Part shown: positions 8,630 to 25,767 of the stretch, in pieces
Position numbering within the stretch: position 1 is the stretch's first letter
Layout: every line of letters begins with the position of its first letter
From: an uncultured virus (IMG/VR IMGVR_UViG_3300022072_000005)
Lineage: Duplodnaviria; Heunggongvirae; Uroviricota; Caudoviricetes
DNA length: 56,629 nt
Virus record (IMG/VR): IMGVR_UViG_3300022072_000005
Reading direction: 5' to 3' (one strand)
Made by a program: the position numbers and the translations under genes
The notes under the pieces: model-generated
Databases searched by the model: none
The model's input: only the letters and a program-made list of their open reading frames with translations
Told to the model about the DNA's origin: nothing

Positions 8630-9412
8630 ATGAAAAATGAAATTAGTGTAATCATCCCAGTATTTGAAGTGGATGAAACTTTATTAAGGAATTCAATATT
8701 AAGTGTTGCGGCACAAAAACAAACCCCTGATGCTTTAATATTAGTAGTTAAAGAGAAATCTGATGACCATAAATTAGTTGAAAAATTATCTAAAGAAATT
8801 GAAGGTTTAAATTATGAGATAATTGCGCACAACGGAAATACTAATTTCCAAGCTCAATTAAATTTAGGTGTTAAAGAATGTAAAACCGATTGGTTTATAT
8901 TTTTAGAACAAGATGATGAGTTAGCCAGTATATGGGTTGACAATGTTATCAAATATAGAAGTCATGAACCACTAGTAACTATATTCTTACCTATGATTTT
9001 AGACGTAACACCTGAAGGTGAGTTTATTAACTTTACAAACGAAGCTGTATGGGCTTCACAATTTTCAGATGAATTAGGGTTTTTAGATAATGCCGCATTA
9101 TTAAGATATCAAAACTTTAACATTGATGGTATGGCGGTTTTAAAAGAAGCTTATATGGAATTCGGTGGACTTAAAGAGAGTATAAAATTAAGTTTTATAT
9201 ATGAGTTCTTATTGAGAATGACACATAATGCATGTTCTATAATGGTTATCCCTAAATTAGCGTATAAGCACGTTAATGAAAGAGAAGGTGGTCTTTTTAG
9301 TAAATATAAGAAAGAGTTAACATTAGATGAATCAAGATGGTGGTTAGCTTTAGCAAAAAAAGAGTGCTTTCATATAGTTGATAGGGAAGAGCTTTATGAG
9401 AAAAAAGACTAA
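8630..9412 (+). CDS. GT2-family glycosyltransferase
   Basis: ISVIIPV, NLGVKECKTDWFIFLEQDDE, YEFLLR; ATG 8630 follows the upstream stop. Confidence 0.8.
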   Translation: MKNEISVIIPVFEVDETLLRNSILSVAAQKQTPDALILVVKEKSDDHKLVEKLSKEIEGLNYEIIAHNGNTNFQAQLNLGVKECKTDWFIFLEQDDELASIWVDNVIKYRSHEPLVTIFLPMILDVTPEGEFINFTNEAVWASQFSDELGFLDNAALLRYQNFNIDGMAVLKEAYMEFGGLKESIKLSFIYEFLLRMTHNACSIMVIPKLAYKHVNEREGGLFSKYKKELTLDESRWWLALAKKECFHIVDREELYEKKD

Positions 9413-9418
9413 ATTTTA

Positions 9419-10162
9419 ATGACTAAAAAAAGAGGGCGTAAAAGAAAAAATGGGTTGTATTTTGGGGATGAACAAGAAGCCGCAGTTGTAAGATACTTAA
9501 ATGAAGATGACCCAGCTATTAGAAATAAAATTTATAATGAACACTTAAGAGAAGCATTCAACATTATGGTTGAATCAATTATAAGGCGTTATAAGTTATA
9601 TAGAAAAGACTATTCATTTGAAAATGTACATAGTGATACCTTATCGTATCTAATTTTAAAAGCTGATAAATTTGACACATCAAAAGGGAAACGTGCGTTT
9701 TCTTATTATGGGACTATATGTAAGCATTACATAATAGGGTTAATGATTAAAGACACTAAAATGCTTAATCAAACTTTAGATTTTGATACGTCAATTTCTA
9801 AAGTACATGAGAAAGATGAATTTGTTTATCACTTATCAGACACCGACTATGAGTTATCAGACTTAATTAATACAGTTGTCATTGAAATTCAGAAAGAGAT
9901 TGAAAATGAGGGAGTTGATGGTAATAAAAAAATGACCGAAAACGAAAGAAAAGTTGGTGAAGCTTTAGTTGATATACTTAATAATTGGGAAATCCTTTTT
10001 TCTACCTTACAAGGTGGGTCTAAATTTAACAAAAATGTTATTTTAGCAACTATTAGAGAAAATACAAACCTAATCACAAAGGATATTAGGATTGCTATGC
10101 GTAGGTATAAAACCATATATGAGTTAATTAAGGGTGATAAGATAGAAGAGGGTTATTTATAA
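9419..10162 (+). CDS. T4 gp55-like late sigma factor
   Basis: KFDTSKGKRAFSYYGTI resembles the region 2.3-2.4 signature of gp55-type sigmas (FDPxK...AF.YFT); no clear region 4. Confidence 0.7.
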   Translation: MTKKRGRKRKNGLYFGDEQEAAVVRYLNEDDPAIRNKIYNEHLREAFNIMVESIIRRYKLYRKDYSFENVHSDTLSYLILKADKFDTSKGKRAFSYYGTICKHYIIGLMIKDTKMLNQTLDFDTSISKVHEKDEFVYHLSDTDYELSDLINTVVIEIQKEIENEGVDGNKKMTENERKVGEALVDILNNWEILFSTLQGGSKFNKNVILATIRENTNLITKDIRIAMRRYKTIYELIKGDKIEEGYL

Positions 10163-10180
10163 TAAAACACTATTTTTACC

Positions 10181-10193
10181 TATTTATAATAAA
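10181..10193 (+). promoter_or_regulatory. Putative late-promoter motif (A)TATTTAT, second copy at 10154
   Basis: TATTTATAATAAA occurs twice just upstream of 10204; same motif precedes many structural genes. Confidence 0.6.
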
Positions 10194-10203
10194 CAGACAT
10201 GTT

Positions 10204-10575
10204 ATGGCTAGAAGTAAAAAACAAAAAATTGAAGTAAATAGTAATGACTCCCTTCAGAATGTTATGCAAGAGGTTTACAATAACTCATGCACTCAAATTC
10301 AGGACGCTCAAAAGGTAATCAATGAAATTTCAGCTGCATCAAACCCAGAAGACGTTGATGAGTGGGCAAAATTAGCTAAGGCTAAAACAGATGCATTAAA
10401 AGTTAAAGACTCGGCAATTAAAATTAAATTAGACATTGGTAAACTTCAAAACGAAATTATCAAAAATAGTGGTGATGTTGCGGTGGCAATAAACAATAGT
10501 CCAGATATTGTTAGTAAAGATAGTTTTGCTAGGGTTAGGGAATTAATAGAGAATCGTAACTCAGAGTCAAAATAA
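10204..10575 (+). CDS. Hypothetical helical protein
   Basis: 123-aa ORF, first gene after the late motif. Confidence 0.75.
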   Translation: MARSKKQKIEVNSNDSLQNVMQEVYNNSCTQIQDAQKVINEISAASNPEDVDEWAKLAKAKTDALKVKDSAIKIKLDIGKLQNEIIKNSGDVAVAINNSPDIVSKDSFARVRELIENRNSESK

Positions 10576-10583
10576 TTTAAATA

Positions 10584-12038
10584 ATGGACGTTACTAAAGA
10601 AAAATCTAATGTATTTGGGCAAATTGCTGCATTAAGGGTTTCTGCTGAAGGATACCCTAAAAAGGTTATTCTAAACTCATTACAATCAATATCTCAAAAA
10701 ACAAATAGTTTAGATTTTTTAACTGATTTACTTAAATCTTTAATTGGTTTTGAATCATTAAAAGAATCTTTAGTAGATGTTTTAACCCACAACTTAGATG
10801 AAATAGAATTAGATGTTAAAAAAGCAATTAAAAAAGCTTTAAAATCTATGGTTAGTTGTAGTGTAAACCCAAAAATACCAGATTCATTTATTAATGATGG
10901 TATTACTATCGAACTTAATAAAATTGATTTCTTAGGGATGTTTAAAGTTGACCCAATTTCAGACGCTGGTAAACTATTATATAATGACGTATTTAATTTA
11001 TCAAATAGCACAGACTTCAACACATTTTTATACAATACAATACAAAACGATGGTAATGTTGATAGTTGGGGGTTATCCACAACAAATAATAAAATTTTAG
11101 ACATTCGTTTTGATGAATATGCGCCATCAGGAACAAACTTACCAAATAATACTATAAACATAAAACCTAATGAACACTACGCTATAAATAAAAAACTACC
11201 AGATTTAAATAATGATTATATTGATAGTATTCAATTATTTAATTCAGCTAAGTTAATTAATAATATAGTAGAATCTATTTTTGGTTCAATTAGTATAAAG
11301 ATTGATAAGAGTAAAAAACAAATACAAAACGAAATAAAGATTGAGGATATTATCAATAGAATAATAGATTGTGATGATGATATAATAATAGATGATAGTT
11401 ACTTCACGTTTACTAATGAAGATTTATCTTCTATTGATTATCGAAGTGAGATTAGAAGGAAAGGTGTTGACATTATCACTACTTGCGGTGATGCCGAATC
11501 AACAATTGATTTTAATACATTAACTAAACTAAACTCTGATTTAGATAGCCTTAATAATCAATCACAAAGTGATAACCTAATGGAGATTACCACTACAATA
11601 ATAAGAAATGGTTTAAATGATTTAGCAAACGAATCAGCTAATAGTGTTGGTAATAATGATAAACTTAATATAAAAATTAATTTTATTGAAAAAATGTTAA
11701 GGCAAGTAATGGCTGCTATATTTAATTCAATATTAGCACCAAAATTAATTATCATTCTAGCAGTAAATCACTCAATTATCTATGGTGAAGTTTTTGATGA
11801 CACTGAAGCTTTCATTAAAAAAAATCGTGTATTACTAACAGCTGCATTACAGTCAGTTAGGGATGCGGTTATTGGAATATTAATGGATAAAGTATTAAAA
11901 GAAGTTAAAAAATTAGTAACGGATAACGTTATTAAAACTCAAATAGAAAAAGTTAAATATAAAAAATCTCAAATAGCTAGTCTAGTTGGGGTACCAACAG
12001 ACGTTTTAAGAAAAATGGCTGGAATTATAAAAAAATAA
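10584..12038 (+). CDS. Hypothetical protein, probably virion-associated
   Basis: 484-aa ORF in an operon with a baseplate gene. Confidence 0.75.
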   Translation: MDVTKEKSNVFGQIAALRVSAEGYPKKVILNSLQSISQKTNSLDFLTDLLKSLIGFESLKESLVDVLTHNLDEIELDVKKAIKKALKSMVSCSVNPKIPDSFINDGITIELNKIDFLGMFKVDPISDAGKLLYNDVFNLSNSTDFNTFLYNTIQNDGNVDSWGLSTTNNKILDIRFDEYAPSGTNLPNNTINIKPNEHYAINKKLPDLNNDYIDSIQLFNSAKLINNIVESIFGSISIKIDKSKKQIQNEIKIEDIINRIIDCDDDIIIDDSYFTFTNEDLSSIDYRSEIRRKGVDIITTCGDAESTIDFNTLTKLNSDLDSLNNQSQSDNLMEITTTIIRNGLNDLANESANSVGNNDKLNIKINFIEKMLRQVMAAIFNSILAPKLIIILAVNHSIIYGEVFDDTEAFIKKNRVLLTAALQSVRDAVIGILMDKVLKEVKKLVTDNVIKTQIEKVKYKKSQIASLVGVPTDVLRKMAGIIKK

Positions 12039-15172: not shown

Positions 15173-16030
15173 ATGAATACAAATGTAAAGGTGGGTAATC
15201 CTAACCCAACAGCAACTCTTGCTATCAATAAAGGCAGGGTAAAAATCTATAACAATAAGTCAGAAACTCCGACTTACTACCTTAAAAAAGGTCAAGAATT
15301 CCAAATTGAAGTCTTTAATACAACAACCGATACGGTATTGGCTAAAATCAAATTGAATAATAAACTTATTTCACAAAGTGGTTTGGTATTAAAACCAGGT
15401 CAGAGAGTATTCTTAGATAGGTTTTTTGATATAGACAAAAAATTTAAATTTGATACATACGAAGTGTCAGGTGGTGATGAAGTAAAACAAGCAATTATAG
15501 ATAATGGCGATGTTGAAGTTTTATTTTATAGAGAGGAACAACCATATATTAACCTCAACACGTTTAATAATACGTATGGTGGTTCATTTGGTGGGCCAGT
15601 TCACACTGATAACACTATGTTTTTTAGTGATATGGCATCAACAGGTGGTTATGTACATGATTCAGTGACAAACACAAATAACATAACATTTACGACAACA
15701 GGTAGTGTTGAGTTAGGTACTACCACATCAAACGCATCATTAGATGTTTTAAAGTCAAGTAGTGTCAAAAAAAAATCTCTAGTTAAAAAAATTAAATCTA
15801 ATAATATTGAAACTGGTAGGGTTGAGCAAGGTGCTACTTCAAATCAAAAATTCGATACTGTGAGTCTTGATTTCCAATCAAACCCATTTCACAGGGTTTC
15901 TTATAAGTTATTACCAAATTCACAAAAAAATGTGGAAACACAAGATTTACCCAAATCTTATTGTACTCAATGTGGTGCTAAAGCGAAAGCGAAAGATAAC
16001 TTCTGTTCAAAATGTGGTAAAAAAATATAA
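15173..16030 (+). CDS. Hypothetical protein with beta-rich N-domain and C-terminal zinc ribbon
   Basis: CTQCG...FCSKCG at the C-terminus; Thr/Asn/Ser-rich linker. Confidence 0.8.
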   Translation: MNTNVKVGNPNPTATLAINKGRVKIYNNKSETPTYYLKKGQEFQIEVFNTTTDTVLAKIKLNNKLISQSGLVLKPGQRVFLDRFFDIDKKFKFDTYEVSGGDEVKQAIIDNGDVEVLFYREEQPYINLNTFNNTYGGSFGGPVHTDNTMFFSDMASTGGYVHDSVTNTNNITFTTTGSVELGTTTSNASLDVLKSSSVKKKSLVKKIKSNNIETGRVEQGATSNQKFDTVSLDFQSNPFHRVSYKLLPNSQKNVETQDLPKSYCTQCGAKAKAKDNFCSKCGKKI

Positions 16031-16101: not shown

Positions 16102-17178
16102 ATGAATAAAACGATATTAATTACTGGTGGAGCTGGATTTATAGGTTCACACGTTGTGAATTACTTCACAGATAAATACCCTGAAACCCATTTTATTGTA
16201 ATTGACTCTTTAACATACGCATCTAATTTAAAAAATATTATGCAAGTAGAAGGTAGTTCCGTAGGGTGGAAACCAAACATGACTTTCTGGAACACTGATA
16301 TTAGAAACGTTGATTCTCTTCAAACATTATTCAAAAGTCATAACATTGATGGAATTATTCACTTAGCAGCTGAATCTCATGTTGATAATTCTATTAAAGA
16401 CCCAAATATTTTTGTGGAAACAAATGTTATTGGTACTCTTAACCTATTAAATGTTGCTAAAGAATTCTGGGGTGAAGGTTCTGAAAATAGGTTCCATCAC
16501 GTATCAACAGATGAAGTTTATGGTGATTTAACGCTTGACGAACAACCTTTCGTGGAAACGACACCTTATGACCCAAGTTCACCTTATTCAGCCTCTAAAG
16601 CAGCCTCAGACCATTTTGTAAGGGCATATGGTAGAACTTATGGGATGAATATTACAATTTCTAATTGTTCTAACAATTATGGGCCTCACCAACACGCTGA
16701 AAAGTTAATCCCAGTTGTTATTAAAAAATTAATGCATGGTGAGAAGATACCAGTTTATGGTAAGGGTGAGAATGTAAGGGATTGGTTATGGGTTGGCGAC
16801 CATGTAACGGCAATTGATGAAATATTCCATAATGGTAAAAAAGGTCACACTTATAATGTAGGTGGTGATAATGAATTAACCAATATAGAATTAATATATA
16901 AAATATGTGAATTATTCAATAATTTATATAAAAATGTTGAATCACCGATAGTAAATTTACCTGATTTTCCAATAAAGTTTGTTACAGATAGAAAAGGTCA
17001 TGATTTGAGATATGCAGTTAATTCAAATAAATTACAAACAAATCTTAATTGGAAACCTGAAAAGAAAATTTACGATGGTTTATTAGAAACAATTGAATAT
17101 TATGTTAGAACTAAAATAGTTAACGGTAAATTAGAATATGAAAATAGAACAATTAACACTGGCCGAAGTAACCCTTGA
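16102..17178 (+). CDS. rfbB: dTDP-glucose 4,6-dehydratase
   Basis: TGGAGFIGS, HLAAESHVD, HVSTDEVYG, SPYSASKA, SNNYGP, DRKGHDLRYA. Confidence 0.96.
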   Translation: MNKTILITGGAGFIGSHVVNYFTDKYPETHFIVIDSLTYASNLKNIMQVEGSSVGWKPNMTFWNTDIRNVDSLQTLFKSHNIDGIIHLAAESHVDNSIKDPNIFVETNVIGTLNLLNVAKEFWGEGSENRFHHVSTDEVYGDLTLDEQPFVETTPYDPSSPYSASKAASDHFVRAYGRTYGMNITISNCSNNYGPHQHAEKLIPVVIKKLMHGEKIPVYGKGENVRDWLWVGDHVTAIDEIFHNGKKGHTYNVGGDNELTNIELIYKICELFNNLYKNVESPIVNLPDFPIKFVTDRKGHDLRYAVNSNKLQTNLNWKPEKKIYDGLLETIEYYVRTKIVNGKLEYENRTINTGRSNP

Positions 17179-17293
17179 ATTAAAAAGGGCTAAATTTTGG
17201 GTTGAAGATACACCAATCCGCAAGTCATTAGACTTGATTAATAAAATGGAGACTATAAAATTAAAATTAATAAATAAAAGTTTGGATATATGA
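17138..17293 (+). CDS. Small hypothetical protein (51 aa)
   Basis: MKIEQLTL...KSLDI, overlapping the rfbB 3' end. Confidence 0.45.
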   Translation: MKIEQLTLAEVTLELKRAKFWVEDTPIRKSLDLINKMETIKLKLINKSLDI

Positions 17294-17312
17294 AATGTTA
17301 TTTTTATATTTG
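17281..17312 (+). promoter_or_regulatory. Bacteroidota-type sigma70 promoter of the helicase operon
   Basis: TTTG(17281)-N20-TATATTTG(17305), matching the -33/-7 consensus. Confidence 0.75.
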
Positions 17313-17342
17313 TATCATTTTAAAACAACAAAATATAATAAT

Positions 17343-18791
17343 ATGAAAAGAAATTTAGTGCTTAGAGGGTATCAAGAAGGCGCAGTAGACCACATTATGA
17401 AAACACCAGTATGTGTTTTAGCAATAGCACCCAATGGTGGTAAAACAGAAATATCTATTAAAGTTATTGATAGATATCTACAAAAAAACCCAAACGCCAA
17501 AATCTTAGTGTTACCTCACTCAACTAATGTGTTGAAAGATAATTATTATGATAGATTAGAAGAAACTAAAGTCAATTTCACATATTCAAAAGAATTTGAC
17601 CCTAATAGTAGTGTCCACATATCACTACCAAATAGTGAGAAAAAAATCACAGGTAAATATGATTTTGTAATAGTTGATGAAGCTCATGAAAATTATTTTG
17701 CAACAAGAGAACAAAGACTTATCAAGAATATAAACCCAAGTAAACAACTATTGTTAACTGGAACACCCTCTATTTTTATTAGGAAGGGTGGGTTTGATAT
17801 ATTTTTTATTGCAGCAAATCAAATTCCAGAAATATACTCAGCTAAATTAAATCTTGAATTGGTGGCATCCAACTATAAATGGTTAGGTAATTACACCAAT
17901 GACCACGAAGTTAAAAAAAGTTTCATGTTTAATGTTGATGATACACGAAAAACACTTGAAGCGGTAATGGACAAATTATTACAAAGACTTCAAACTAAAT
18001 TTACACCAGTACAATTTAATCACCCATCATGGGTAACTAAATTTAAAAATTGGGCGTTTACTTATGACCAAATTGGTAAAACAATGATTGCATGTAAAAC
18101 TATTTCACAAGCTAACACAGTTTATGATATTTTAAAAAATGAACATAATATGAATGTAGGGTTATCTCATTCATTAAATGATACTGAAAGTAGTATAATT
18201 AATGATTTTAAAGCTGGTGAGTATAATGTGTTGGTTGTTGTTAATAGAGGTCGATTAGGGTTTAGTGATGTGAATTTAATGAACCTTATTGATATGACAG
18301 GTACACATAATCCAGATATTATATTTCAAATGTTCTGTCGAGTTCTTAGAGGTACACCAGACATGACAAAATACTATATGAAGGTTACACCTAAAGAATT
18401 ACATAACATGTCATTAACACACCTCTCAGTATGCGCTGGGTTGATGTTAACAGATATTAAATTCTTAAAAATATACAACGGTAGAAATTTTAATGATATC
18501 CAAATCCCAATAATTAGAGGTAATAGACCATCACCAACTGTTGGGTCAACAAGTGGAAGTGGTGGTACAAGACCTAACCCAGTTACTAGAAATATTTTAC
18601 CAGAATTTACTTACAATGTTGTAGATACAATGAAAAGTGTGCTTCATGATGCTGAAAACATTGCCAGTATTTATAAAATGACCACTATTGGTCACGTTAA
18701 ATACACATTAGGTCATTCTAAACAAAGACCCAAATTAACATTTGAAGATATAGTAGAAAGTTGTCGAGGTAATTTATCGTTAGTGGAGTAA
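17343..18791 (+). CDS. SF2 helicase/translocase (ResIII/DEAH-like)
   Basis: LRGYQ (Q motif), APNGGKT (I), DEAH (II), LTGTP (III), FQMFCRVLR (VI); ATG 17343 lies downstream of the promoter. Confidence 0.88.
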   Translation: MKRNLVLRGYQEGAVDHIMKTPVCVLAIAPNGGKTEISIKVIDRYLQKNPNAKILVLPHSTNVLKDNYYDRLEETKVNFTYSKEFDPNSSVHISLPNSEKKITGKYDFVIVDEAHENYFATREQRLIKNINPSKQLLLTGTPSIFIRKGGFDIFFIAANQIPEIYSAKLNLELVASNYKWLGNYTNDHEVKKSFMFNVDDTRKTLEAVMDKLLQRLQTKFTPVQFNHPSWVTKFKNWAFTYDQIGKTMIACKTISQANTVYDILKNEHNMNVGLSHSLNDTESSIINDFKAGEYNVLVVVNRGRLGFSDVNLMNLIDMTGTHNPDIIFQMFCRVLRGTPDMTKYYMKVTPKELHNMSLTHLSVCAGLMLTDIKFLKIYNGRNFNDIQIPIIRGNRPSPTVGSTSGSGGTRPNPVTRNILPEFTYNVVDTMKSVLHDAENIASIYKMTTIGHVKYTLGHSKQRPKLTFEDIVESCRGNLSLVE

Positions 18792-18795
18792 TAAT

Positions 18796-19557
18796 ATGCC
18801 TGAAAAAACTCCATATAATTCAATTAAAGAATGGCGAGTTAGTAATAAAAAAGCCTATAAAGATGCTGAATCACAAGGTTATATTAATAGATTATGTGAA
18901 ATATTTGGGTGGTCTGAATATGTGAAAGAAAGGGGTAATGGGCATTGGAATCTAAATCGATGTGTTGAATCTGCAAAAGGTTTAACTAAAAAAAAATGGA
19001 GAGAAAAATTTAATTCAGCATATCAAGCAGCACATAGAAAAGGTTGGATGGGTGAATGTAATAAAGTTTTAATACATAATACTAATCCAACTGGGTTAGT
19101 TAGAAGTGAAAAAGAAAGTCATTTAATAGCATTAAAATATAGTACACTTAGAGATTTTAGAGAAAATGAACCAATTACTTATAGTCACGCATCTTATCAT
19201 GGTTGGTTACCCAAAATAACATCACACTTAATTAGGGAAACAAATAAAACTAAAACTTACACTAAAGAAGAATGTATAAATTCAGCTAAAAAATTTAAAT
19301 ATAGAAGTCAATGGGCTAAAAATGAAGTGACGTATTATAATTATGCAAGAAATAATGGTTGGTTAGATGAATGTTGTCAACATATGAATAGAAAATCTAA
19401 ATGGGAAGATTCAAATATTTGGATTGAAAAAATAACTTTCATAGATTCTAAAAAATATAAAACCGAAGAAGAATGGAAAAAAAAATCCATAGGTTCTTAT
19501 ATGACAGCTCAAAAATTAGGGATTATGGATGAATGTACTAAACATATGAAATTATGA
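18796..19557 (+). CDS. Helical repeat protein A (half repeat + 4 repeats)
   Basis: ~50-aa repeats W/Y-TKE-x-C-xx-A-KKY...EW...Y-xx-A-xx-xGWL-x-EC-xx-HM. Confidence 0.85.
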   Translation: MPEKTPYNSIKEWRVSNKKAYKDAESQGYINRLCEIFGWSEYVKERGNGHWNLNRCVESAKGLTKKKWREKFNSAYQAAHRKGWMGECNKVLIHNTNPTGLVRSEKESHLIALKYSTLRDFRENEPITYSHASYHGWLPKITSHLIRETNKTKTYTKEECINSAKKFKYRSQWAKNEVTYYNYARNNGWLDECCQHMNRKSKWEDSNIWIEKITFIDSKKYKTEEEWKKKSIGSYMTAQKLGIMDECTKHMKL

Positions 19558-20333
19558 AAGAAAAATCACCATATAAATCACTAGGTGAGTGGCGAAAAGC
19601 TAACCCAAAAGAATATAAAAAAGCTTATTCTAAAGGTTGGTTAGATGAAATATGTGGTAAGTTTAGTTGGATTAAAATTTCAAAAAAAATTAACGCTAAT
19701 GGTTATTGGAATATTAAAGAGAGGGTCTTAAATGAATCTAAAAAATATAAAACTAGAAGTGAATGGCAAAAAAATTCTTCTGGTTCATATAATTCAGCTA
19801 GAAAAAATGGTTGGTTAGACGAATGTACTGAACATATGAAAAGATTTAATAAACCAAATAAATATTGGGTTAAAAAAAAATGTATCACCGAAGCTAAAAA
19901 ATACAAAACTAGAAGTGAATGGGCTAAAAATTCTTCTGGCTCATATAATTCAGCTAAAATAAATGGTTGGTTAGATGAATGTACTAAACATATGATTGAG
20001 GTATTAAAACCGAAAGGTTATTGGACTAAAGAATTATGTTTGGTTGAAGCTAAAAAATATAAAACTAGAAATGAATGGCAAAAAAATAGCCAAACTTCAT
20101 ATAATAAATCAAGAATGAATGGTTGGTATGATGAATGTATACTTCATATGGAAATTAAAAAAATACCATCTACTTATTGGACTAAAGAATTATGTTTGGT
20201 TGAAGCTAAAAAATATAATAGTAAATCTAAATGGAAAAAAAATAATTCATCTTCTTATAACTCAGCTAGAATTAACGGTTGGTTTAATGAATGTACTAAA
20301 CATATGAAACGTGGTAGAAAAATCTCAATATAA
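19554..20333 (+). CDS. Helical repeat protein B (half repeat + 4 repeats)
   Basis: Same repeat; 156-bp DNA periodicity including an identical 45-mer at 20018 and 20174. Confidence 0.88.
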   Translation: MKEKSPYKSLGEWRKANPKEYKKAYSKGWLDEICGKFSWIKISKKINANGYWNIKERVLNESKKYKTRSEWQKNSSGSYNSARKNGWLDECTEHMKRFNKPNKYWVKKKCITEAKKYKTRSEWAKNSSGSYNSAKINGWLDECTKHMIEVLKPKGYWTKELCLVEAKKYKTRNEWQKNSQTSYNKSRMNGWYDECILHMEIKKIPSTYWTKELCLVEAKKYNSKSKWKKNNSSSYNSARINGWFNECTKHMKRGRKISI

Positions 20334-21564
20334 ATCCCTAGCCGAATGGAGAAAATCAGATTTATCATCATATAATGCTGCTAGGAAACAAGGGTTTCTA
20401 AAAGAAATATGTGATTTATTTGGTTGGAAATTAATACCAAAAAAAATCTTCTGGACCAAAGAAAAGTGTGTAGTTGAAGCTAAAAAAAATGAAACTAGGC
20501 TTGAATGGAGAAAAAATAGTTATGGTTCATATGATTCTGCTAAAAGAAAAGGTTGGTTACCTGAAATATGTGATTTATGTAATTGGGAAGAACCAAAAAA
20601 AATATATTGTAGAAAACCTAATGGTTATTGGGGTGTATTAGAGAATTGTATGATAGAAGCGAAGAAACACAACACTCTAACTAAATGGCGTAAAGCTAAT
20701 CTCCCTTCCTATGAGGGGGCAAAAAACAATGGACACCTTAATGAATGTACTAAACATATGACAATACCTAAAATAGGTGTTAAATATTGGACATTAGAGC
20801 GTTGTAAAGAGGATGCGTTAAAACATAGTGGTAGGTGGGAATGGCAAAAATCTAAAGGTGGTTACAATGTAGCGAAAACTAAAGGTTGGTTAGATATTTG
20901 TTGTGAGCATATGCCACAAAGAAAAAAATGGACATATGAAGAGGTTAAAAAAATAGCATTAAAATATGAATACGCTTCTGATTGGGAACATGCTGACCCC
21001 TTATCATACTCAATAGCATCAACTAATGGTTGGTATGAAGACTTAACCGCACATATGGGTAGGAAAATAAAAAAATTAGGTTACTGGAATAATAAGGAAC
21101 TTTGTAAAAAAATTATCGCAACATGCAATAGTAAGGAAGAAGTTAAGAAACATCACGGTGTATTTAACTCAATTAGAAGAAATGGGTGGTATAAGGAGTT
21201 AACAGCGCATTTTAAACCAGCTACTGGTTTTTGGAATAAAGAAACATTATTAGAAGAGGCCAATAAGTATGAAACAATTAAGGATTTTAAGGATAATTCA
21301 AATGGTGCATACCAAACAGCTATTAAACTTGATTGTAAGGATTACGTGACACAAAATTTAATCAGTAATTTATGCAAACCTAAAGGTTATTGGACAAAAG
21401 AACGAATATTAGCCGAATCAATAAAATATACAACTAGAACTCAATTCATTAGAGCTGAACCAAGTGCTTATCGAATTGCTAGACAGTTAGGTATAATAGA
21501 TGAAGTATGTTCACATATGATAGTAAAAAGAAAGGTAAATAATGAGAGAAAAATCCCAATATAA
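20311..21564 (+). CDS. Helical repeat protein C (half repeat + 7 repeats)
   Basis: Same repeat; GTG start supported by an N-terminus matching the paralogs. Confidence 0.85.
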   Translation: MVEKSQYKSLAEWRKSDLSSYNAARKQGFLKEICDLFGWKLIPKKIFWTKEKCVVEAKKNETRLEWRKNSYGSYDSAKRKGWLPEICDLCNWEEPKKIYCRKPNGYWGVLENCMIEAKKHNTLTKWRKANLPSYEGAKNNGHLNECTKHMTIPKIGVKYWTLERCKEDALKHSGRWEWQKSKGGYNVAKTKGWLDICCEHMPQRKKWTYEEVKKIALKYEYASDWEHADPLSYSIASTNGWYEDLTAHMGRKIKKLGYWNNKELCKKIIATCNSKEEVKKHHGVFNSIRRNGWYKELTAHFKPATGFWNKETLLEEANKYETIKDFKDNSNGAYQTAIKLDCKDYVTQNLISNLCKPKGYWTKERILAESIKYTTRTQFIRAEPSAYRIARQLGIIDEVCSHMIVKRKVNNERKIPI

Positions 21565-22141
21565 ATCCCTAGCCGAATGGAAAAAAGCTAATCCAAAAGA
21601 TTATCAACGTGCATATCATAAAGATTGGTTGGATGATATATGTGAAAGGTTTGGTTGGGAAAGATTAAATTACGATGTCAAACCTTCTGGTTATTGGACG
21701 AAAGAAAAGTGTCTTAAAGAAGCTAGAAAATTTTCATTTAAAAGTGAATGGGCTAAAAAATCAGGTGGTTCATACGATAAAGCTTGTACTAATGGTTGGT
21801 TGGATGAATGTACAGCTCATATGATTGAAATTAGAAAACCAAAGGGTTATTGGACAAAAGAAAAAATTATAGCTGAAGCTAGAAAATACAATTCAATAAT
21901 TGAATGGCAAAAAAACTCTAACGCTTCAATAAATAAAGCTAGAAAACTTAAAATTTATGGTGAATGCATAACTCATATGGTTATGAATAAAAAACCAAAT
22001 GGTTATTGGACTAAAGAAAAAATTATAGCTGAATCTAAAAAATATGGTTCAATAACTGAATGGCAAAAAAACTCATTTACTACTTATAAAAAAGCGTTAA
22101 AGTTAAACTTTATTGTTGACTGCACTAAACATATGAAATAA
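21542..22141 (+). CDS. Helical repeat protein D (half repeat + 3 repeats)
   Basis: Same repeat; 5' DNA nearly identical to that of protein C. Confidence 0.88.
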   Translation: MREKSQYKSLAEWKKANPKDYQRAYHKDWLDDICERFGWERLNYDVKPSGYWTKEKCLKEARKFSFKSEWAKKSGGSYDKACTNGWLDECTAHMIEIRKPKGYWTKEKIIAEARKYNSIIEWQKNSNASINKARKLKIYGECITHMVMNKKPNGYWTKEKIIAESKKYGSITEWQKNSFTTYKKALKLNFIVDCTKHMK

Positions 22142-22143
22142 AG

Positions 22144-22272
22144 TTAACAATCACTTCCCTTGGATAAATTATCCTCACCCCATAACGGTTGAAGATTATC
22201 CAATTTCCAACACTCCTTAAATTCAATGTCATCAACGCTCTTAAATGAGAATGATGATATTGGCTTTTTATG
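22144..22272 (-). pseudogene. 3' remnant of an HNH endonuclease
   Basis: Reads HKKPISSFSFKSVDDIEFKECWKLDNLQPLWGEDNLSKGSDC-stop; no start codon between it and the capsid terminator. Confidence 0.75.
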
Positions 22273-22291
22273 GTTCTTTATTATAAATAAA

Positions 22292-22318
22292 AAAAGCCTT
22301 GCAAATTGCAAGGCTTTT
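22292..22318. terminator. Bidirectional terminator after the major capsid gene
   Basis: AAAAGCCTTGCAA-A-TTGCAAGGCTTTT between convergent operons. Confidence 0.85.
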
Positions 22319-22342: not shown

Positions 22343-24139
22343 TTATCTTAATTCGTTTGCGTTGAATGTTTGTAATCCATCTACTCTAACAGCCCCGTAA
22401 AAGCGGTTGTTAACAACTTTTTTAGCATAACGTGTCATTATACCTTTCACTGGCGCAAAGTTGAACGGGTTGTACATTGTAGGCGTAAGTTGCATTGGCA
22501 CGTAAGGTGCGTAGATGTAACCTGTATCTAATAAAGATTTACCTTTATGTCCCATAATCAATGACCAAGATGGAGCATAAGGGTCACGGTACACTTGGTA
22601 ACGTCCACTTAAAGAACCGATTTTCTCGATACCCATGTTGTATTGGTCTTGCTCAGGAGATGCATCAGATACGTGGAAGTATTCTAAATCGTCAAACACA
22701 GCAGAGATTTCAGAAGAAACCACGATGAAGTTTGCACCACCTCTAAGAGTTGATTTATGTATTTGTGCTGAAATTTGGTTAACTTTAGTAATTAAAGTTT
22801 GATTCCAGTCTTTTTGAGTGTAAGCATTAGCAGCTAGAGAAGCTTTTCTCCATCCGTTCCAATCCCATCTCAATTGCCATGCAGCAGCACTTCTTAAATC
22901 TCTTAAGATTTCTCTATCGATTTCAGCAGCAACTTGCTCAGAAAGCATTGCAGTTAATTCAGCTTCAGCATCAATGTTGTGAAATGCACTAACATCTTGC
23001 GCTAATTCTGGAGACCATGTAGCTCTTAATTTACGTTCTTCAACGGAAACAACAACCTCATCTAATTTGAAAGATACTTCTCCCATTTCAGTTTCAAGTT
23101 CTAATGTAGCATATTCTGCCCATGATACTGATAAATCAGCTGAAGTGAAACCAGAAGCTAATACTAAGTCAGCACCTACATAACCATCGTATGTTGAAGT
23201 ACCAGCTGCATCAACTGGGTGAGTCATATCTAATTCTAAAAATATAACACCAGCATCATCACAAACATCGTTGTAATCTACGATACCTCTACCATATTTT
23301 TGTGTTACTAATCTAAATGGTACAACACCACCGTCAGCAACAATTACGTTACCATCAGCATCAGTTAATGCTTCACCATTCATAACAACTTTTAAAGAAG
23401 CTAAGAAAGATTCAGTATCCATTGGGTTACCATCTGGTCCACTTAATCTACCTTTATTGATTGCGCTAAATCCACTTACTTGTAAGATTGCGTTCCTTAA
23501 AGAACCATCTGTAGCAGTTGGAAGTGCAGCAAAATCAGCAGCAGCAGCAAAAGTACCGTCTGCGCTTAATGTTACTAAAGCACCAGAACCAGCGATAATA
23601 GAAATTTCACCTTTAGACGAATCAAATAATCCATCATTATAATAAATATCATAAAGATTTTTAGATAAGTATTTAGTTGGAGAATAAGAAGGGTCAACAC
23701 CTTTTACAATTGGAAGTCCGTCAGAACCCATTGAAGTATGTGCAGAAAATTGTGGTCCATTTTTATGTGGGTCACCATATGCATCACTTGCAGAATCATA
23801 CCTAGCAGAAGTTTGTGGTACGAAGAAGAACAATTTACCAATTGGCATGTTCATAGCTTGTACAGATACAATATCATTTGCTAATAATTTTGAGAATACT
23901 CTTCTTACGATTGGAAATACAACCGTTTCAAAAGAACCTGAGCTAGAAGCGTCAGTAGACTCATTTAATAAGTGAGAAGCTTCGTTCTCATATAATTGAG
24001 CGATATTTTCTTTAACGTGTCCTTTAAGACCGTCTAAGAAACCTAAACTATCCCATTTATTGATAGTGTTCTCTCTTACTTGTTTCATGTGGTTAAGTCC
24101 GATATTACCAACTTGACCTGAATTTAAAAAATTTGACAT
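22343..24139 (-). CDS. Major capsid protein (T4 gp23-like)
   Basis: PIVRRVF..L.A.DIVSVQAM, RKLRATWSPELAQD...DAEAEL..EIDREI, GYIYAPYVP, GIMTRYA. Confidence 0.96.
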   Translation of the reverse strand: MSNFLNSGQVGNIGLNHMKQVRENTINKWDSLGFLDGLKGHVKENIAQLYENEASHLLNESTDASSSGSFETVVFPIVRRVFSKLLANDIVSVQAMNMPIGKLFFFVPQTSARYDSASDAYGDPHKNGPQFSAHTSMGSDGLPIVKGVDPSYSPTKYLSKNLYDIYYNDGLFDSSKGEISIIAGSGALVTLSADGTFAAAADFAALPTATDGSLRNAILQVSGFSAINKGRLSGPDGNPMDTESFLASLKVVMNGEALTDADGNVIVADGGVVPFRLVTQKYGRGIVDYNDVCDDAGVIFLELDMTHPVDAAGTSTYDGYVGADLVLASGFTSADLSVSWAEYATLELETEMGEVSFKLDEVVVSVEERKLRATWSPELAQDVSAFHNIDAEAELTAMLSEQVAAEIDREILRDLRSAAAWQLRWDWNGWRKASLAANAYTQKDWNQTLITKVNQISAQIHKSTLRGGANFIVVSSEISAVFDDLEYFHVSDASPEQDQYNMGIEKIGSLSGRYQVYRDPYAPSWSLIMGHKGKSLLDTGYIYAPYVPMQLTPTMYNPFNFAPVKGIMTRYAKKVVNNRFYGAVRVDGLQTFNANELR

Positions 24140-24177: not shown

Positions 24178-25767
24178 TTAGTTAGTTCTTCTAATTAAAT
24201 CAAGAACTCTTTTTTGTGCTGGGTCAACATAAGCAGTCGTCTCATTTAATTGAGTTGATTGTCCTGATGTTTGCTCAGACATTAATTTATTTTCAATTGA
24301 CTCATTCATAGGATTTTTAGTTCCTAATTCAGAATTAATTCTTTTATAAAGTTTTTTAGACTCTTCAATAGTTCCAACTTCTTCATCAAATCTATTTAGT
24401 ATTCCTTTCTTCTCATCACTAGTAGTTGAGTGTTCTAAGAATAATTTAGTTGCATGTGTTAAGTTAATATTGAATACAGCAGTCTCGGTGATTGTTTTTC
24501 TAAAATCCTTAAGAGATGATTTGAACATGTCATTCTCAACTTTAAGTTTTTTAGCTTCAGCAAATAAAGTGTTATACTTTTTAACGGTTTCAACTAATTT
24601 CTTAGCTTCTACGCTTTCAGCTTTAACTCCCTTACCTTTGTGAAATGCTTTTGAACCAGCACCTTCTGGTTGACCTAATTTGTCAGCTCCAGTACCATCT
24701 TGCTTAAATGCTTGGGATAACCCAACCGCAATTTGTTCATCTACTTCTTCACCTTCTTCAACAACTTCTTCAGTAACTTCTTCAGTTTCTTCACAATCTT
24801 CTTCCATAATATGCTTAGCATGATTATCTCCGTTTCCGTTTTGTGCGTCATCTTTAAATCCACCTTCAAGGTTATCACCTGAATCAGAATCTTCTGGTGC
24901 AGTTTGTCCTTCGATATCACCTGTGTTAGGCGAAGCAGTGTTAACTAACTCTTTATCGTGACCTTTACCTCTAACTATGTCTTCTGCAATTTCATCATCT
25001 TCCGATAATTCAATTTCATAAACAATAGATTCACCTAATTCATCTTCATCTTCTTCCTCAGTTTCTTCAGTCTCATCCTCAACGCCAACTTCCGCATCCA
25101 TTTCTGGTTCTGCATCAGCTTCAACTTCTGGTCCAATTTCCACATCCATTTCTGGTTCTGCTTCCATTTCTGGTTCTGCTTCCATTTCTGGTTCAAATTC
25201 TACTTCTGGCTCACTTTCAAATTCGCCATCAACATCCATTTCACCTTGGTCTAACATACTACCACCACCGTTCATCTTAACATTGTACTCTGCTCCTGAT
25301 ACTGGGTCTTTAATAATTACTTCTTCTGATGATACAACTTCTATTTCGTCTTCTCCGCTTAATTTTTTGTAAACTGAGATAACTTCCTCGTCTGATGCAC
25401 CAGTCATGTCCATTCCGTAGTCTTCGCTACCTTCTTCTGCTCCAAGACCTATTTCTAAGTCTTCTTCTCCAGAGTCCATTCCTATGTCATCTAACCCAAG
25501 TTCTTCAGAACCACCTTCTTCTTCTCCACCAAAATCAGGTGTAGCTTCAGGTGCGTCATCAACTGGTAATGCGTCAACATCGCTGTCAACGTCTTCGATA
25601 TCTTCGATATCGTACTCATCCTCATTTAAGGATTCGTTTAGCGTGCTAGTAATCTCTTCTTTCGCTACCGAACGAAGTATTTCTTTAGCATTTGTGTTCA
25701 AAGTCTCTTCAATAAGATTGAACTCCGCTAATGCTTCTTCTATAATAGACTTTTTTCCGTCTGTCAT
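24178..25767 (-). CDS. Prohead core/scaffolding protein (gp22-like), very acidic
   Basis: Position between protease and capsid genes; D/E-rich body, coiled-coil C-terminus, many (I/L)xE sites; 18-bp EPEMEA repeats near 25146-25195. Confidence 0.8.
   Translation of the reverse strand: MTDGKKSIIEEALAEFNLIEETLNTNAKEILRSVAKEEITSTLNESLNEDEYDIEDIEDVDSDVDALPVDDAPEATPDFGGEEEGGSEELGLDDIGMDSGEEDLEIGLGAEEGSEDYGMDMTGASDEEVISVYKKLSGEDEIEVVSSEEVIIKDPVSGAEYNVKMNGGGSMLDQGEMDVDGEFESEPEVEFEPEMEAEPEMEAEPEMDVEIGPEVEADAEPEMDAEVGVEDETEETEEEDEDELGESIVYEIELSEDDEIAEDIVRGKGHDKELVNTASPNTGDIEGQTAPEDSDSGDNLEGGFKDDAQNGNGDNHAKHIMEEDCEETEEVTEEVVEEGEEVDEQIAVGLSQAFKQDGTGADKLGQPEGAGSKAFHKGKGVKAESVEAKKLVETVKKYNTLFAEAKKLKVENDMFKSSLKDFRKTITETAVFNINLTHATKLFLEHSTTSDEKKGILNRFDEEVGTIEESKKLYKRINSELGTKNPMNESIENKLMSEQTSGQSTQLNETTAYVDPAQKRVLDLIRRTN

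Follow-up and report, generated by a model that had tools for sequence, protein, structure and literature searches.

Type I restriction-modification enzymes (HsdR/HsdS) are built around an ATP-driven SF2 motor whose direction comes from a second, variable subunit that confers specificity. Phage homing endonucleases generally carry small DNA-binding modules in repeated form, according to the excerpted text of PMC10448857; there, tandem small modules of the T5orf172 proteins (CapR, DUF723, DUF4379) target a phage nuclease, and nuclease-free derivatives have been re-used, as in domesticated CapR (Barth et al. 2023, PMC10448857). A further point of comparison is the HA domain (PF03457), which binds DNA according to the title of an NMR paper by Mills et al. 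(2013), as it appears in the portion of PMC12191111 that cites it. Finally, the "fractured" phage genes of Dassa et al. (2009) consist, in the sections of that account drawn on here (PMC2677866), of two adjacent pieces whose products must reassemble, split inteins rejoining the pieces, or an endonuclease gene lying between them.

The window analysed here is a stretch of 56,629 nt from an uncultured Caudoviricetes virus (IMG/VR IMGVR_UViG_3300022072_000005). Among phage structural and replication genes it carries, at 17343..22141 on the + strand, an operon of one SF2 helicase followed by four tightly coupled paralogs, P1 to P4:

17172..17189, + strand: terminator-like hairpin, 3' of the sugar-dehydratase gene; upstream edge of the operon
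17343..18791, + strand: SF2 helicase, 482 aa counted from M17; frame open from 17295
18516..18593, + strand: Gly/Ser/Pro-rich linker, residues 408-433 of the 498-aa helicase ORF
18594..18719, + strand: small conserved C-terminal domain with a ...SIYKxTTI... block, present family-wide
18726..18788, + strand: helicase tail, RPKLTFEDIVESCRG plus 6 residues, homologous by comparison with natural fusions to helix 1 of the repeat unit
18796..19557, + strand: P1, 253 aa; half unit (18796 to ~18918) and 4 full units
19554..20333, + strand: P2, 259 aa; half unit and 4 full units
20311..21564, + strand: P3, GTG start, 417 aa; half unit and 7 full units
21542..22141, + strand: P4, 199 aa; half unit and 3 full units
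22292..22318, no strand assigned: strong hairpin with a 12-bp stem, separating the operon from a convergent capsid gene

The intergenic distances from the helicase through P1, P2 and P3 to P4 are +4, -4, -23 and -23 nt, and terminator-like hairpins bracket the whole (17172-17189 and 22292-22318), the second of which is probably a two-way terminator. A preliminary description of this DNA had proposed just such an operon, with 4, 4, 7 and 3 full units, and both the ORFs and the unit HMM agree with it. It had also noted that no frameshift joins the helicase to P1; indeed, with a TAG at 18781-18783 in the P1 frame and the helicase stop TAA at 18789-18791, there is no plausible read-through or frameshift join. 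The host-type promoter of the same description could not be told from chance, as sigma-70-like sites number 31 in this AT-rich stretch where chance alone predicts 35. These four paralogs are also carried by the nearest record (G001), a near-identical 42-kb fragment, and contigs from four DNA runs are short, near-identical pieces. One joint in these contigs, 22141 to 20317, has only 33 letters on one side and was not trusted.

The likeness of the paralogs to HsdS, drawn earlier from the sequence, is an analogy of design and not one of descent, for the best HsdR model (NF008521) reaches 27 bits where its cut-off is 729; PADLOC REase_I reaches 14 bits. Unlike a Type I system, the locus has no methylase, nuclease or HsdS fold, and its proposed docking device is a split repeat unit. 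That the locus lacks a nuclease or methylase was borne out by family searches, in which no nuclease or methylase family matched any of the five proteins. Among the PADLOC defence-system models the helicase drew only weak generic matches (PbeA, 34 bits; Cas3, 17 bits) and the paralogs none, and a literature search, thin in its coverage of subscription journals, found no published description of a helicase-array cassette or of the unit.

The motor itself is a clear SF2 helicase/translocase, with two RecA-like domains, Walker A, DEAH, and motifs III and VI. Pfam assigns ResIII (1.5e-13, 51 bits) and Helicase_C (7e-8, 33 bits), both above cut-off, and the motifs lie at 17427-17450 (GGKTE), 17676-17696 (DEAH), 17757-17771 (TGTP) and 18327-18353 (QxxxRxxRG); G49-K50-T51 and D128-E129-A130-H131 are invariant across 26 homologs. 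The start was placed at M17 (17343) within an ORF that spans 17295-18791 (498 aa), and is likely the true one since homologs begin MKRNL. A PDB sequence search with the helicase as single query gave no match, and one with the helicase profile found only RadD (1e-7) and XPBII (2e-6); the model of a 50%-identical relative resembles XPB, ISWI/Snf2, RadD, MDA5 and Hef (E 1e-14 to 1e-12). An assignment as UvsW was abandoned, because a tblastn search with the helicase had no match in 50,697 phage records. The family comprises 543 clusters (50% identity, E <= 1e-30), and relatives within it bear C-terminal methyltransferase domains; in the model of a fusion relative the stretch equivalent to the linker is of low confidence.

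The repeat unit was captured in an HMM of 49 positions, built from 734 units out of homologs, that finds in each of P1, P2, P3 and P4 a half unit and then 4, 4, 7 and 3 full units, one of the four in P1 being degenerate in helix 1. The unit lacks a CxxC motif; its conserved residues are W6, C11, W24, W40, C44 and H47-M48. Cys occupies position 11 in 81% of canonical units, and 95% have His47-Met48. In P2 the repetition is visible in the DNA as a tandem repeat (19733-20309; period 156 bp, 3.7 copies, 75% matches). The paralogs have pI values of 9.5-9.9 and match PHROG 20046, an uncharacterised phage family, at E = 1e-45, 4e-62, 3e-66 and 5e-41 for P1 to P4. The unit has no matching model in the Pfam and NCBIfam copies searched, and it is abundant, with 1192 near-length and 984 longer homologs.

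All four paralogs start in mid-repeat, as had been claimed: their N-terminal units match only HMM positions ~12-46, so that helix 1 is missing. These half units end in ...C..FGW in P1, P3 and P4 and in ...C..FSW in P2. The model of P4 consists of separate four-helix units joined by flexible linkers, and its residues 1-40, the half unit lacking helix 1, are modelled at pLDDT 88-96; the half unit may therefore not need complementing.

Related loci give the operon its evolutionary context. A synteny count took in 75 of them, 57 informative, and in 36/57 there are 1-5 repeat genes immediately after the helicase and on its strand, while in 12/57 the helicase is fused to repeats; in all, helicase and repeats are adjacent or fused in 48/57, across differing phage backgrounds. 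In 2/57 the repeat gene sits at another place in the locus, and 7/57 show a family helicase but no repeat gene within the visible stretch; of these seven, L035 and L059 retain a tail-like end. In a deduplicated set of 28 loci with 65 chain genes, 63/65 of the genes start with a half unit and 61/65 have the C-x3-[GS..]-W signature. The co-occurrence and the varying paralog number (1 to 5 among related phages) anticipated in the preliminary description were thus both found, as were natural fusions of the helicase directly to repeats. The comparative data on synteny, fusions and half-unit starts indicate that the family is one of motor plus repeat arrays, and the synteny and fusions support the view that helicase and paralogs belong together. 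A search with the back-translated half-unit pattern returned only already-known contigs, plus a chance match in a locus (L085) with neither repeat nor helicase.

Units were found in 8/120 near-length helicase homologs, and 16/120 long repeat homologs matched the helicase-family HMM (E 4e-26 to 6e-141); in each of these the motor is at the N terminus and 6-11 units are at the C-terminal end. Among the best 150 family representatives, 58 are fused to the unit, another 39 carry extensions of other kinds, and in 34 the protein stops at the tail. A FastTree phylogeny of 144 helicase cores places two all-fused clades basally, followed by a split clade of 120 rows that contains nested fused forms, and at least 7 changes are needed on the tree, though it is uncertain that the fused form came first, because of the method and the very long outgroup branches on which the tree was rooted. 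On sequence comparison, the gene in one large clade is cut after helix 1 of its first unit.

It is the fusions, too, that establish the likeness of the helicase tail to the missing helix. For the tail tested alone the resemblance claimed earlier is not significant: the unit HMM gives no match even at E = 100, and hhalign finds the right register yet only P = 0.025. When the 16 fusions are mapped, however, the end of the helicase HMM (positions 466-474) shares 7-17 residues with the first unit in every one (16/16). In the natural fusion P0195, tail and half unit make one contiguous unit (HMM 5-48, E = 8e-11), and its AlphaFold model (pLDDT 82) has the tail helix at 469-478 and further helices at 484-490, 492-500 and 504-510, a four-helix pattern identical to that of its later canonical units and of P4. 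By these alignments, the first helix that the half unit lacks is the one found as the helicase tail. A split cassette, defined by the tail motif and then at least one half-unit gene ending C-x3-G-W, is present in the window (tail ...LTFEDIVESCRG..., four genes) and likewise in the 28 non-redundant loci. Two proteins with a half-type start and a GIY-YIG domain (P0305, P0306) were set aside as truncated canonical units, not of the junction type.

These observations lean towards a reading of the operon as a two-part, site-directed SF2 translocase, in which one motor is common to four alternative reader arrays. In the wider family, motor and array sit on a single polypeptide; in the clade of the window, the cut leaves helix 1 as the last ~15 residues of the helicase, with helices 2-4 forming the conserved N-terminal half unit of each array gene. 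Tail and half unit would then reassemble into one complete unit, tethering array to motor. Binding of the array to particular sites on a nucleic acid, most likely DNA, would set where the motor acts, and duplication of the array gene would give one motor several specificities. This arrangement would resemble the fractured genes in its need for reassembly but differ from them in having no intein and no intervening gene, in a cut that falls inside a small repeat unit, and in the multiplication of the downstream part.

We consider it somewhat likely that tail and half unit dock physically, a judgement drawn from sequence and models. A complex prediction for helicase residues 430-498 with P4 residues 1-96 scored 0.18 against a mark of 0.32, a result that weighs on neither side. 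Helicase and arrays might instead cooperate with the half unit as a self-sufficient cap and the tail as a relic of fusion, meeting through other surfaces, such as the small C-terminal domain, or only on shared DNA. This we regard as unlikely, even though the half unit alone is modelled with high confidence, the tail by itself has no unit-HMM match, and the helicases of L035 and L059 keep a tail-like end with no neighbouring arrays. A relic would be expected to decay, whereas the tail motif is kept in 102/112 split helicases and the half-unit signature in 61/65 chain genes over deep divergence, and natural fusions put the tail directly against the half unit. Moreover, the two pieces co-vary relative to canonical units: the tail residue equivalent to position 11 is I/L/V/M, never Cys, in 102/102 scored tails, HM at 47-48 is replaced by x-G-W in 75/80 half units, and tail subtype tracks half-unit subtype from locus to locus, though substitutions and subtypes follow clades and could go back to a small number of evolutionary events.

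The same unit occurs well beyond this helicase family. In cultured phages it also works beside other helicases and with no half unit, a point against the two-part reading. Genes 4 and 5 of Vibrio phage PVA23, vB_ValM_R11Z_382 and BcepSauron_125 share it in arrays of 3-6 or more, and the unit HMM matches these GIY-YIG/MUG113 (T5orf172-like) proteins at E 1e-15 to 1e-28. GIY-YIG domains flanked by the unit reach the Pfam cut-off in 10/11 proteins tested and occur by precomputed Pfam in 47/120 long repeat homologs; in BcepSauron the flanked nuclease domain is MUG113. Like the window paralogs these proteins are phage-borne, and they are often multi-copy, one genome having as many as 12 places with them. 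A full unit opens each of their arrays, which surround a nuclease domain or lie ahead of one, whereas the window paralogs start with a half unit, lie behind a helicase and have no nuclease (PF01541 matched neither P1-P4 nor the helicase). In GIY-YIG homing-type nucleases, this small, basic, four-helix unit makes up the accessory array. The principle of tandem small modules is shared with the T5orf172 modules, but those are CxxC-type zinc fingers with no helicase partner described in the excerpted part of PMC10448857, as against a four-helix unit with a W/C/W/W/C/HM pattern; DUF723 (PF05265) had no match at E <= 1. DUF723 is also present in two long homologs of P2, and the Atlas structure neighbours include clusters with DUF723 or NUMOD1, a lead only.

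Because the unit flanks GIY-YIG nucleases, the paralogs might be seen as nuclease-free homing-endonuclease arrays acting alone, as repressors or target-site shields like CapR, their place beside the helicase reflecting old fission or hitch-hiking. Nuclease-free binders derived from homing endonucleases are on record (PMC10448857, in the text excerpted), HNH genes often lie next to the cassette, and cultured phages have the unit without this helicase. Such independence is nonetheless very improbable for the window: 0/5 repeat proteins examined in cultured phages without this helicase start with a half unit, against 63/65 chain genes; helicase and repeats are adjacent or fused in 48/57 informative loci of differing backgrounds; and fusion or fission recurs at least 7 times.

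The case for DNA as the ligand of the arrays is one of association and charge, as no solved DNA-binding fold detectably matches the unit: Foldseek of the P4 model against PDB gave nothing at E <= 0.001, and the best VIA-align score over 48,161 chains was Z = 3.8, the multi-unit, beads-on-a-string model being a poor query in both. A marginal PDB match of the array profile (2jvw_A, E = 0.01) was set aside because it crosses a unit boundary. The lack of a solved DNA-binding match, and the presence of the dsRNA translocases MDA5 and LGP2 among the fold neighbours of the motor, leave some room for arrays that bind RNA, protein or polymer, with the motor an RNA helicase or protein-displacing ATPase. 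We judge this improbable, as the recurrent partners of the unit are DNA enzymes (GIY-YIG and MUG113 nucleases; XPB/Snf2/RadD-like motors) and its neighbours are replication and nucleotide-metabolism genes. From the basic charge and the nuclease and helicase partners, DNA is the likely ligand. Among architectures already described, the fused relatives share that of HA proteins, an SF2 motor with C-terminal tandem helical repeats of ~50-65 aa. HA itself (PF03457) matched none of the paralogs and homologs (E <= 0.01 or E <= 1), and nothing in G001 at E <= 10, and HA structures were absent from the matches listed in both fold searches, whose multi-unit query is poor for a 50-residue fold. HA is not known to occur in a split form with several paralogs.

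A two-part translocase of this kind may act in replication/recombination, in remodelling or stripping DNA-bound proteins, or in phage-phage competition. If the reading is right, it explains the targeting of a large helicase family of aquatic phages; it would also be a natural, intein-less protein-fragment complementation serving as a docking device, with gene splitting turning an enzyme of fixed specificity into a motor with several exchangeable readers. A bolder and doubtful extension would make the ~49-aa unit a modular DNA-reading repeat that covers a few bp per unit through variable positions in helices 2-3, and the split junction a plug-and-socket for interchangeable arrays on an SF2 motor or, in relatives, on nucleases or methyltransferases; were it true, here would be a naturally programmable way of sending a motor to chosen sites. 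As the unit is common to helicases and homing-type nucleases, knowing its ligand would give an annotation to thousands of phage proteins now called hypothetical, and a new modular DNA-recognition scaffold might come of it. Related arrangements are found in the cultured phages Vibrio pYD38-B, Rhizobium RHph_TM3_3_9 and relatives, where they can be tested at the bench.

The genome represented by the window is that of a T4-like phage of low GC content (~30%), which also encodes a prohead protease, a portal protein, a large terminase, PhoH, a thymidylate synthase and two nucleotide-sugar epimerase/dehydratases. Between the sugar-dehydratase gene and a convergent capsid gene lie five plus-strand genes, the first for an SF2 helicase and the others for four repeat-built paralogs, P1 to P4. 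The helicase start is likely to be at 17343 because its homologs begin MKRNL.

Features of the helicase-array operon and its flanks
17172-17189: hairpin flanking the five genes on one side
Open from 17295, likely start 17343, plus strand: helicase (start from homologs)
18796-19557, plus strand: P1
19554-20333, plus strand: P2
20311-21564, plus strand: P3 (GTG start)
21542-22141, plus strand: P4
22292-22318: hairpin flanking the five genes on the other side
22343-24139, minus strand: Gp23-type capsid gene, convergent to the operon

Successive genes, from helicase to P4, are spaced by +4, -4, -23 and -23 nt, and a TAG at 18781-18783 closes the P1 frame eight bases ahead of the helicase stop. The observations made in the preliminary description hold as a whole, with the exception of its host-type promoter, which is indistinguishable from chance (31 such sites against 35 expected). 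The P2/P3 (20290-20350) and P3/P4 (21520-21580) junctions are near-identical in nucleotides (...GAAAAATCyCAATATAAATCC...), and this shared DNA is read in two frames, as a gene end, ...RKI(S/P)I stop, and as the next start, EKSQYKS. It is a footprint of whole array genes duplicating in tandem. Between P4 and the capsid gene, a 55-aa minus-strand ORF (22144-22311) overlaps the terminator hairpin; its end, ...NLQPLWGEDNLSKG, looks by eye like that of an HNH nuclease, a likeness to which Pfam lends no support.

In the helicase, ResIII and Helicase_C domains with the full set of SF2 motifs form the motor; a Gly/Ser/Pro linker leads from it to a small conserved domain, and the last 21 residues are the tail. 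Fold neighbours of the motor are XPB, ISWI/Snf2, RadD, MDA5/LGP2 and Hef, all translocases on double-stranded nucleic acid. The paralogs are basic (pI 9.5-9.9), match no Pfam, NCBIfam or PADLOC model, and all belong to PHROG 20046, whose function is unknown. By an HMM of the repeat unit (49 positions, built from 734 homolog units), each begins with a half unit, followed by 4, 4, 7 and 3 full ones in P1 to P4. The first unit of each aligns to HMM positions ~12-46 only, so that the paralogs do begin mid-repeat. In the AlphaFold model of P4 (pLDDT 87.7, pTM 0.35) the units are independent bundles of four helices joined by flexible linkers, and the N-terminal unit has just helices 2-4. Duplication of units within P2 is visible in the DNA as well, with a period of 156 bp.

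Split helicases share a conserved end motif, typically WTEExI(F/W)ASA(R/K)G and LTFEDIVESCRG in the window, and the proposed resemblance of this tail to the missing first helix is not significant when the tail is taken alone: the unit HMM does not match the isolated tail even at E = 100, and hhalign finds the right register for it at P = 0.025 only. The likeness is instead settled by natural fusions. Helicases joined directly to repeats do exist, and in all 16 of those mapped among the listed long P2 homologs the helicase HMM reaches positions 466-474, and its end and the first unit have 7-17 residues in common, so the same residues are both "tail" and "helix 1". In one natural fusion, P0195, tail and half unit follow each other in a single chain and together score as one unit (HMM positions 5-48, E = 8e-11). 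Its AlphaFold model (pLDDT 82, pTM 0.69) places helices at 469-478, 484-490, 492-500 and 504-510, a predicted pattern that is the same as in the canonical units behind it. The helicase tail is thus homologous to helix 1 of the unit. Canonical units carry Cys11 in 81% and His47-Met48 in 95% of cases; the position equivalent to 11 is I, L, V or M in all 102 tails with the motif (112 examined), and half units have x-G-W instead of HM in 75 of 80. Tail and half-unit subtypes co-vary across loci. All these correlations track clades and may have few events behind them.

No helicase homolog occurs in 50,697 phage records. Homologs are common in metagenomes, with 271 of near-full length and 543 clusters (50% identity, E <= 1e-30). 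Around relatives of the helicase 75 loci were examined, 14 of them without the helicase 3' end and 4 with less than 300 nt downstream, leaving 57 informative loci. Repeat genes lie directly downstream on the same strand in 36 of these, and their number, which the preliminary description suggested comparing between loci, ranges from one to five. The helicase is itself fused to repeats in 12, and a repeat gene lies elsewhere in 2. The unit-HMM search found no repeat gene in the remaining 7, a class that is partly an artefact of sensitivity, since the HMM misses the repeat-like C-terminus of a helicase in one of them, locus L008. Five of the seven, L008 included, have helicases just 27-31% identical to that of the window. 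The L008 protein itself (9261-11096; also seen in L072) is 31% identical, and its C-terminal region contains stretches (...TKEMFNKIAKRFEY...HGWY...) that resemble degenerate repeats and escape the unit HMM. With duplicates removed there are 28 loci and 65 downstream genes, of which 63 start with a half unit and 61 have the signature ending C-x3-G/S-W. This synteny is conserved across at least four different neighbourhoods, often with adjoining HNH genes, and by gene order and fusion helicase and arrays belong together.

Neighbourhoods of the helicase-array cassette
Between an epimerase gene and a capsid gene
3' of a sigma factor gene and phrog_1745, and 5' of phosphoheptose isomerase and Nudix genes
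5' of SSB and endonuclease VII genes
5' of phrog_1221

Fusion and fission have both recurred in the history of the family. A FastTree phylogeny was built from 144 helicase cores (450 columns), with three distant relatives on very long branches as the root. At its base stand two clades, of 12 and 8 rows, in which every helicase is fused; another clade, of 120 rows, consists mostly of split forms, and fused ones sit at several points within it. This tree requires at least 7 state changes, against a mean of 28 after shuffling. With its uncertain root, the tree suggests a fused ancestor, one main fission and several re-fusions. Among the best 150 family representatives, 58 are fused to the unit and 39 are extended at the C-terminus in other ways; 34 stop at the tail, and 19 are fragments or unclear. 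Those of the other extensions that were read are tandem repeats of different small units; in 14 that were scanned, 4 end in a Methyltransf_8-type domain and 1 contains, at the cut-off, the Pfam "homing endonuclease associated repeat". Given this variety, the motor seems to serve generally as a platform for the sort of small array found with homing endonucleases. Family members of 1013-1224 aa (P0390, P0400, P0402 and P0410) combine in a single chain the motor, an array of other small tandem repeats and, at the C-terminus, a SAM methyltransferase domain of the Methyltransf_8 type.

The unit is also found well away from this helicase. P2 has 1192 near-length and 984 longer homologs. Start and insert were scored in 123 sequences (119 listed homologs, P2's own record being left out, and the four paralogs of the window): 80 have a half-unit start without insert and 24 a full-unit start with a central insert of at least 70 aa. 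In the proteins scanned this insert is a GIY-YIG domain, which reached the Pfam cut-off in 10 of 11, and precomputed Pfam annotation of 120 listed longer homologs gives GIY-YIG in 47 and helicase domains in 15. By tblastn, 25 records of cultured phages (13 Vibrio, 7 Rhizobium, 4 Burkholderia and 1 uncultured) contain the unit, in up to 12 places per genome, every one annotated as hypothetical; in PVA23 genes 4 and 5 and BcepSauron_125 it is joined to GIY-YIG or MUG113 nuclease domains. Because its homologs are so numerous and are joined to both kinds of enzyme, the unit is an abundant accessory module of phage helicases and nucleases, one for which the Pfam and NCBIfam copies searched hold no matching model. 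An 88-residue uncharacterised protein with an NMR structure (PDB 2jvw_A) gives a weak alignment (E = 0.01) that runs from the ...FGWE... closing the half unit into the beginning of the following one; the match may be fortuitous, or the protein may be a distant relative whose structure is solved.

Two cultured phages pair the unit with a ResIII/Helicase_C helicase. In Rhizobium phage RHph_TM3_3_9 the helicase gene is immediately preceded by a full-unit array gene, and in Vibrio phage pYD38-B the array gene overlaps the helicase start.

Array and helicase pairs in cultured phages
L089 3127-5583: RHph_TM3_3_9, array gene EVB39_002, helicase gene EVB39_001
L091 2893-5590: pYD38-B, array gene VPSG_00026, helicase gene VPSG_00025

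Neither helicase matches the HMM of the window's helicase family, and none of five cultured-phage array proteins examined has a half-unit start. This pairing is a second, independent-looking link of the unit with an SF2 motor, and since the helicases differ, the link arose, or was kept, in more than one form.

The interpretation first placed on the operon is supported in part: these comparisons give good support to its structural core, a split repeat by which the motor would be joined to arrays that can be exchanged. Tail and half unit would reassemble and in this way tie the motor to one of its four arrays. The arrays would bind DNA and set where the motor acts. DNA as the ligand is suggested by how basic they are, by the nucleases and DNA translocases that they are found with, and by precedent, since phage homing endonucleases have repeated DNA-binding modules, of which CapR is a nuclease-free derivative (PMC10448857). 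GIY-YIG-type phage proteins with the unit are the closest sequence relatives of the window's arrays, and the closest known architecture is an SF2 helicase with tandem HA domains (PF03457), although the HA model matches neither the window's proteins nor their homologs. The likeness to HsdR and HsdS of Type I systems is one of analogy only. "Fractured" phage genes resemble the helicase-array split in that a gene has been cut, but depend on inteins or an intervening endonuclease gene (PMC2677866). No description of the cassette or the unit was found in the literature searched, which left out most subscription journals.

The capsid protein (22343-24139, minus strand) is 598 aa long, and the Pfam Gp23 model covers mainly residues 347-595, so a long N-terminal part is not covered by the model. 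Adjoining the capsid and protease genes is that for an extremely acidic protein of 529 aa (24178-25767, minus strand) with EPEMEAEPEM-type repeats; it has no family match and may be a scaffold protein. A 285-aa protein (15173-16030, plus strand), encoded between the gene for an unmatched 473-aa protein and that for the sugar dehydratase, carries a zinc ribbon at its C-terminus (Zn_Ribbon_1, 26.5 bits), while the rest of its sequence is unmatched. Finally, the plus-strand gene at 39147-41615 encodes an 822-aa Clp/Lon-like ATP-dependent protease/AAA+ protein (phrog_4871, E = 1e-244), and a related AAA+ gene lies upstream of the fused helicase-array gene in the related locus L061.
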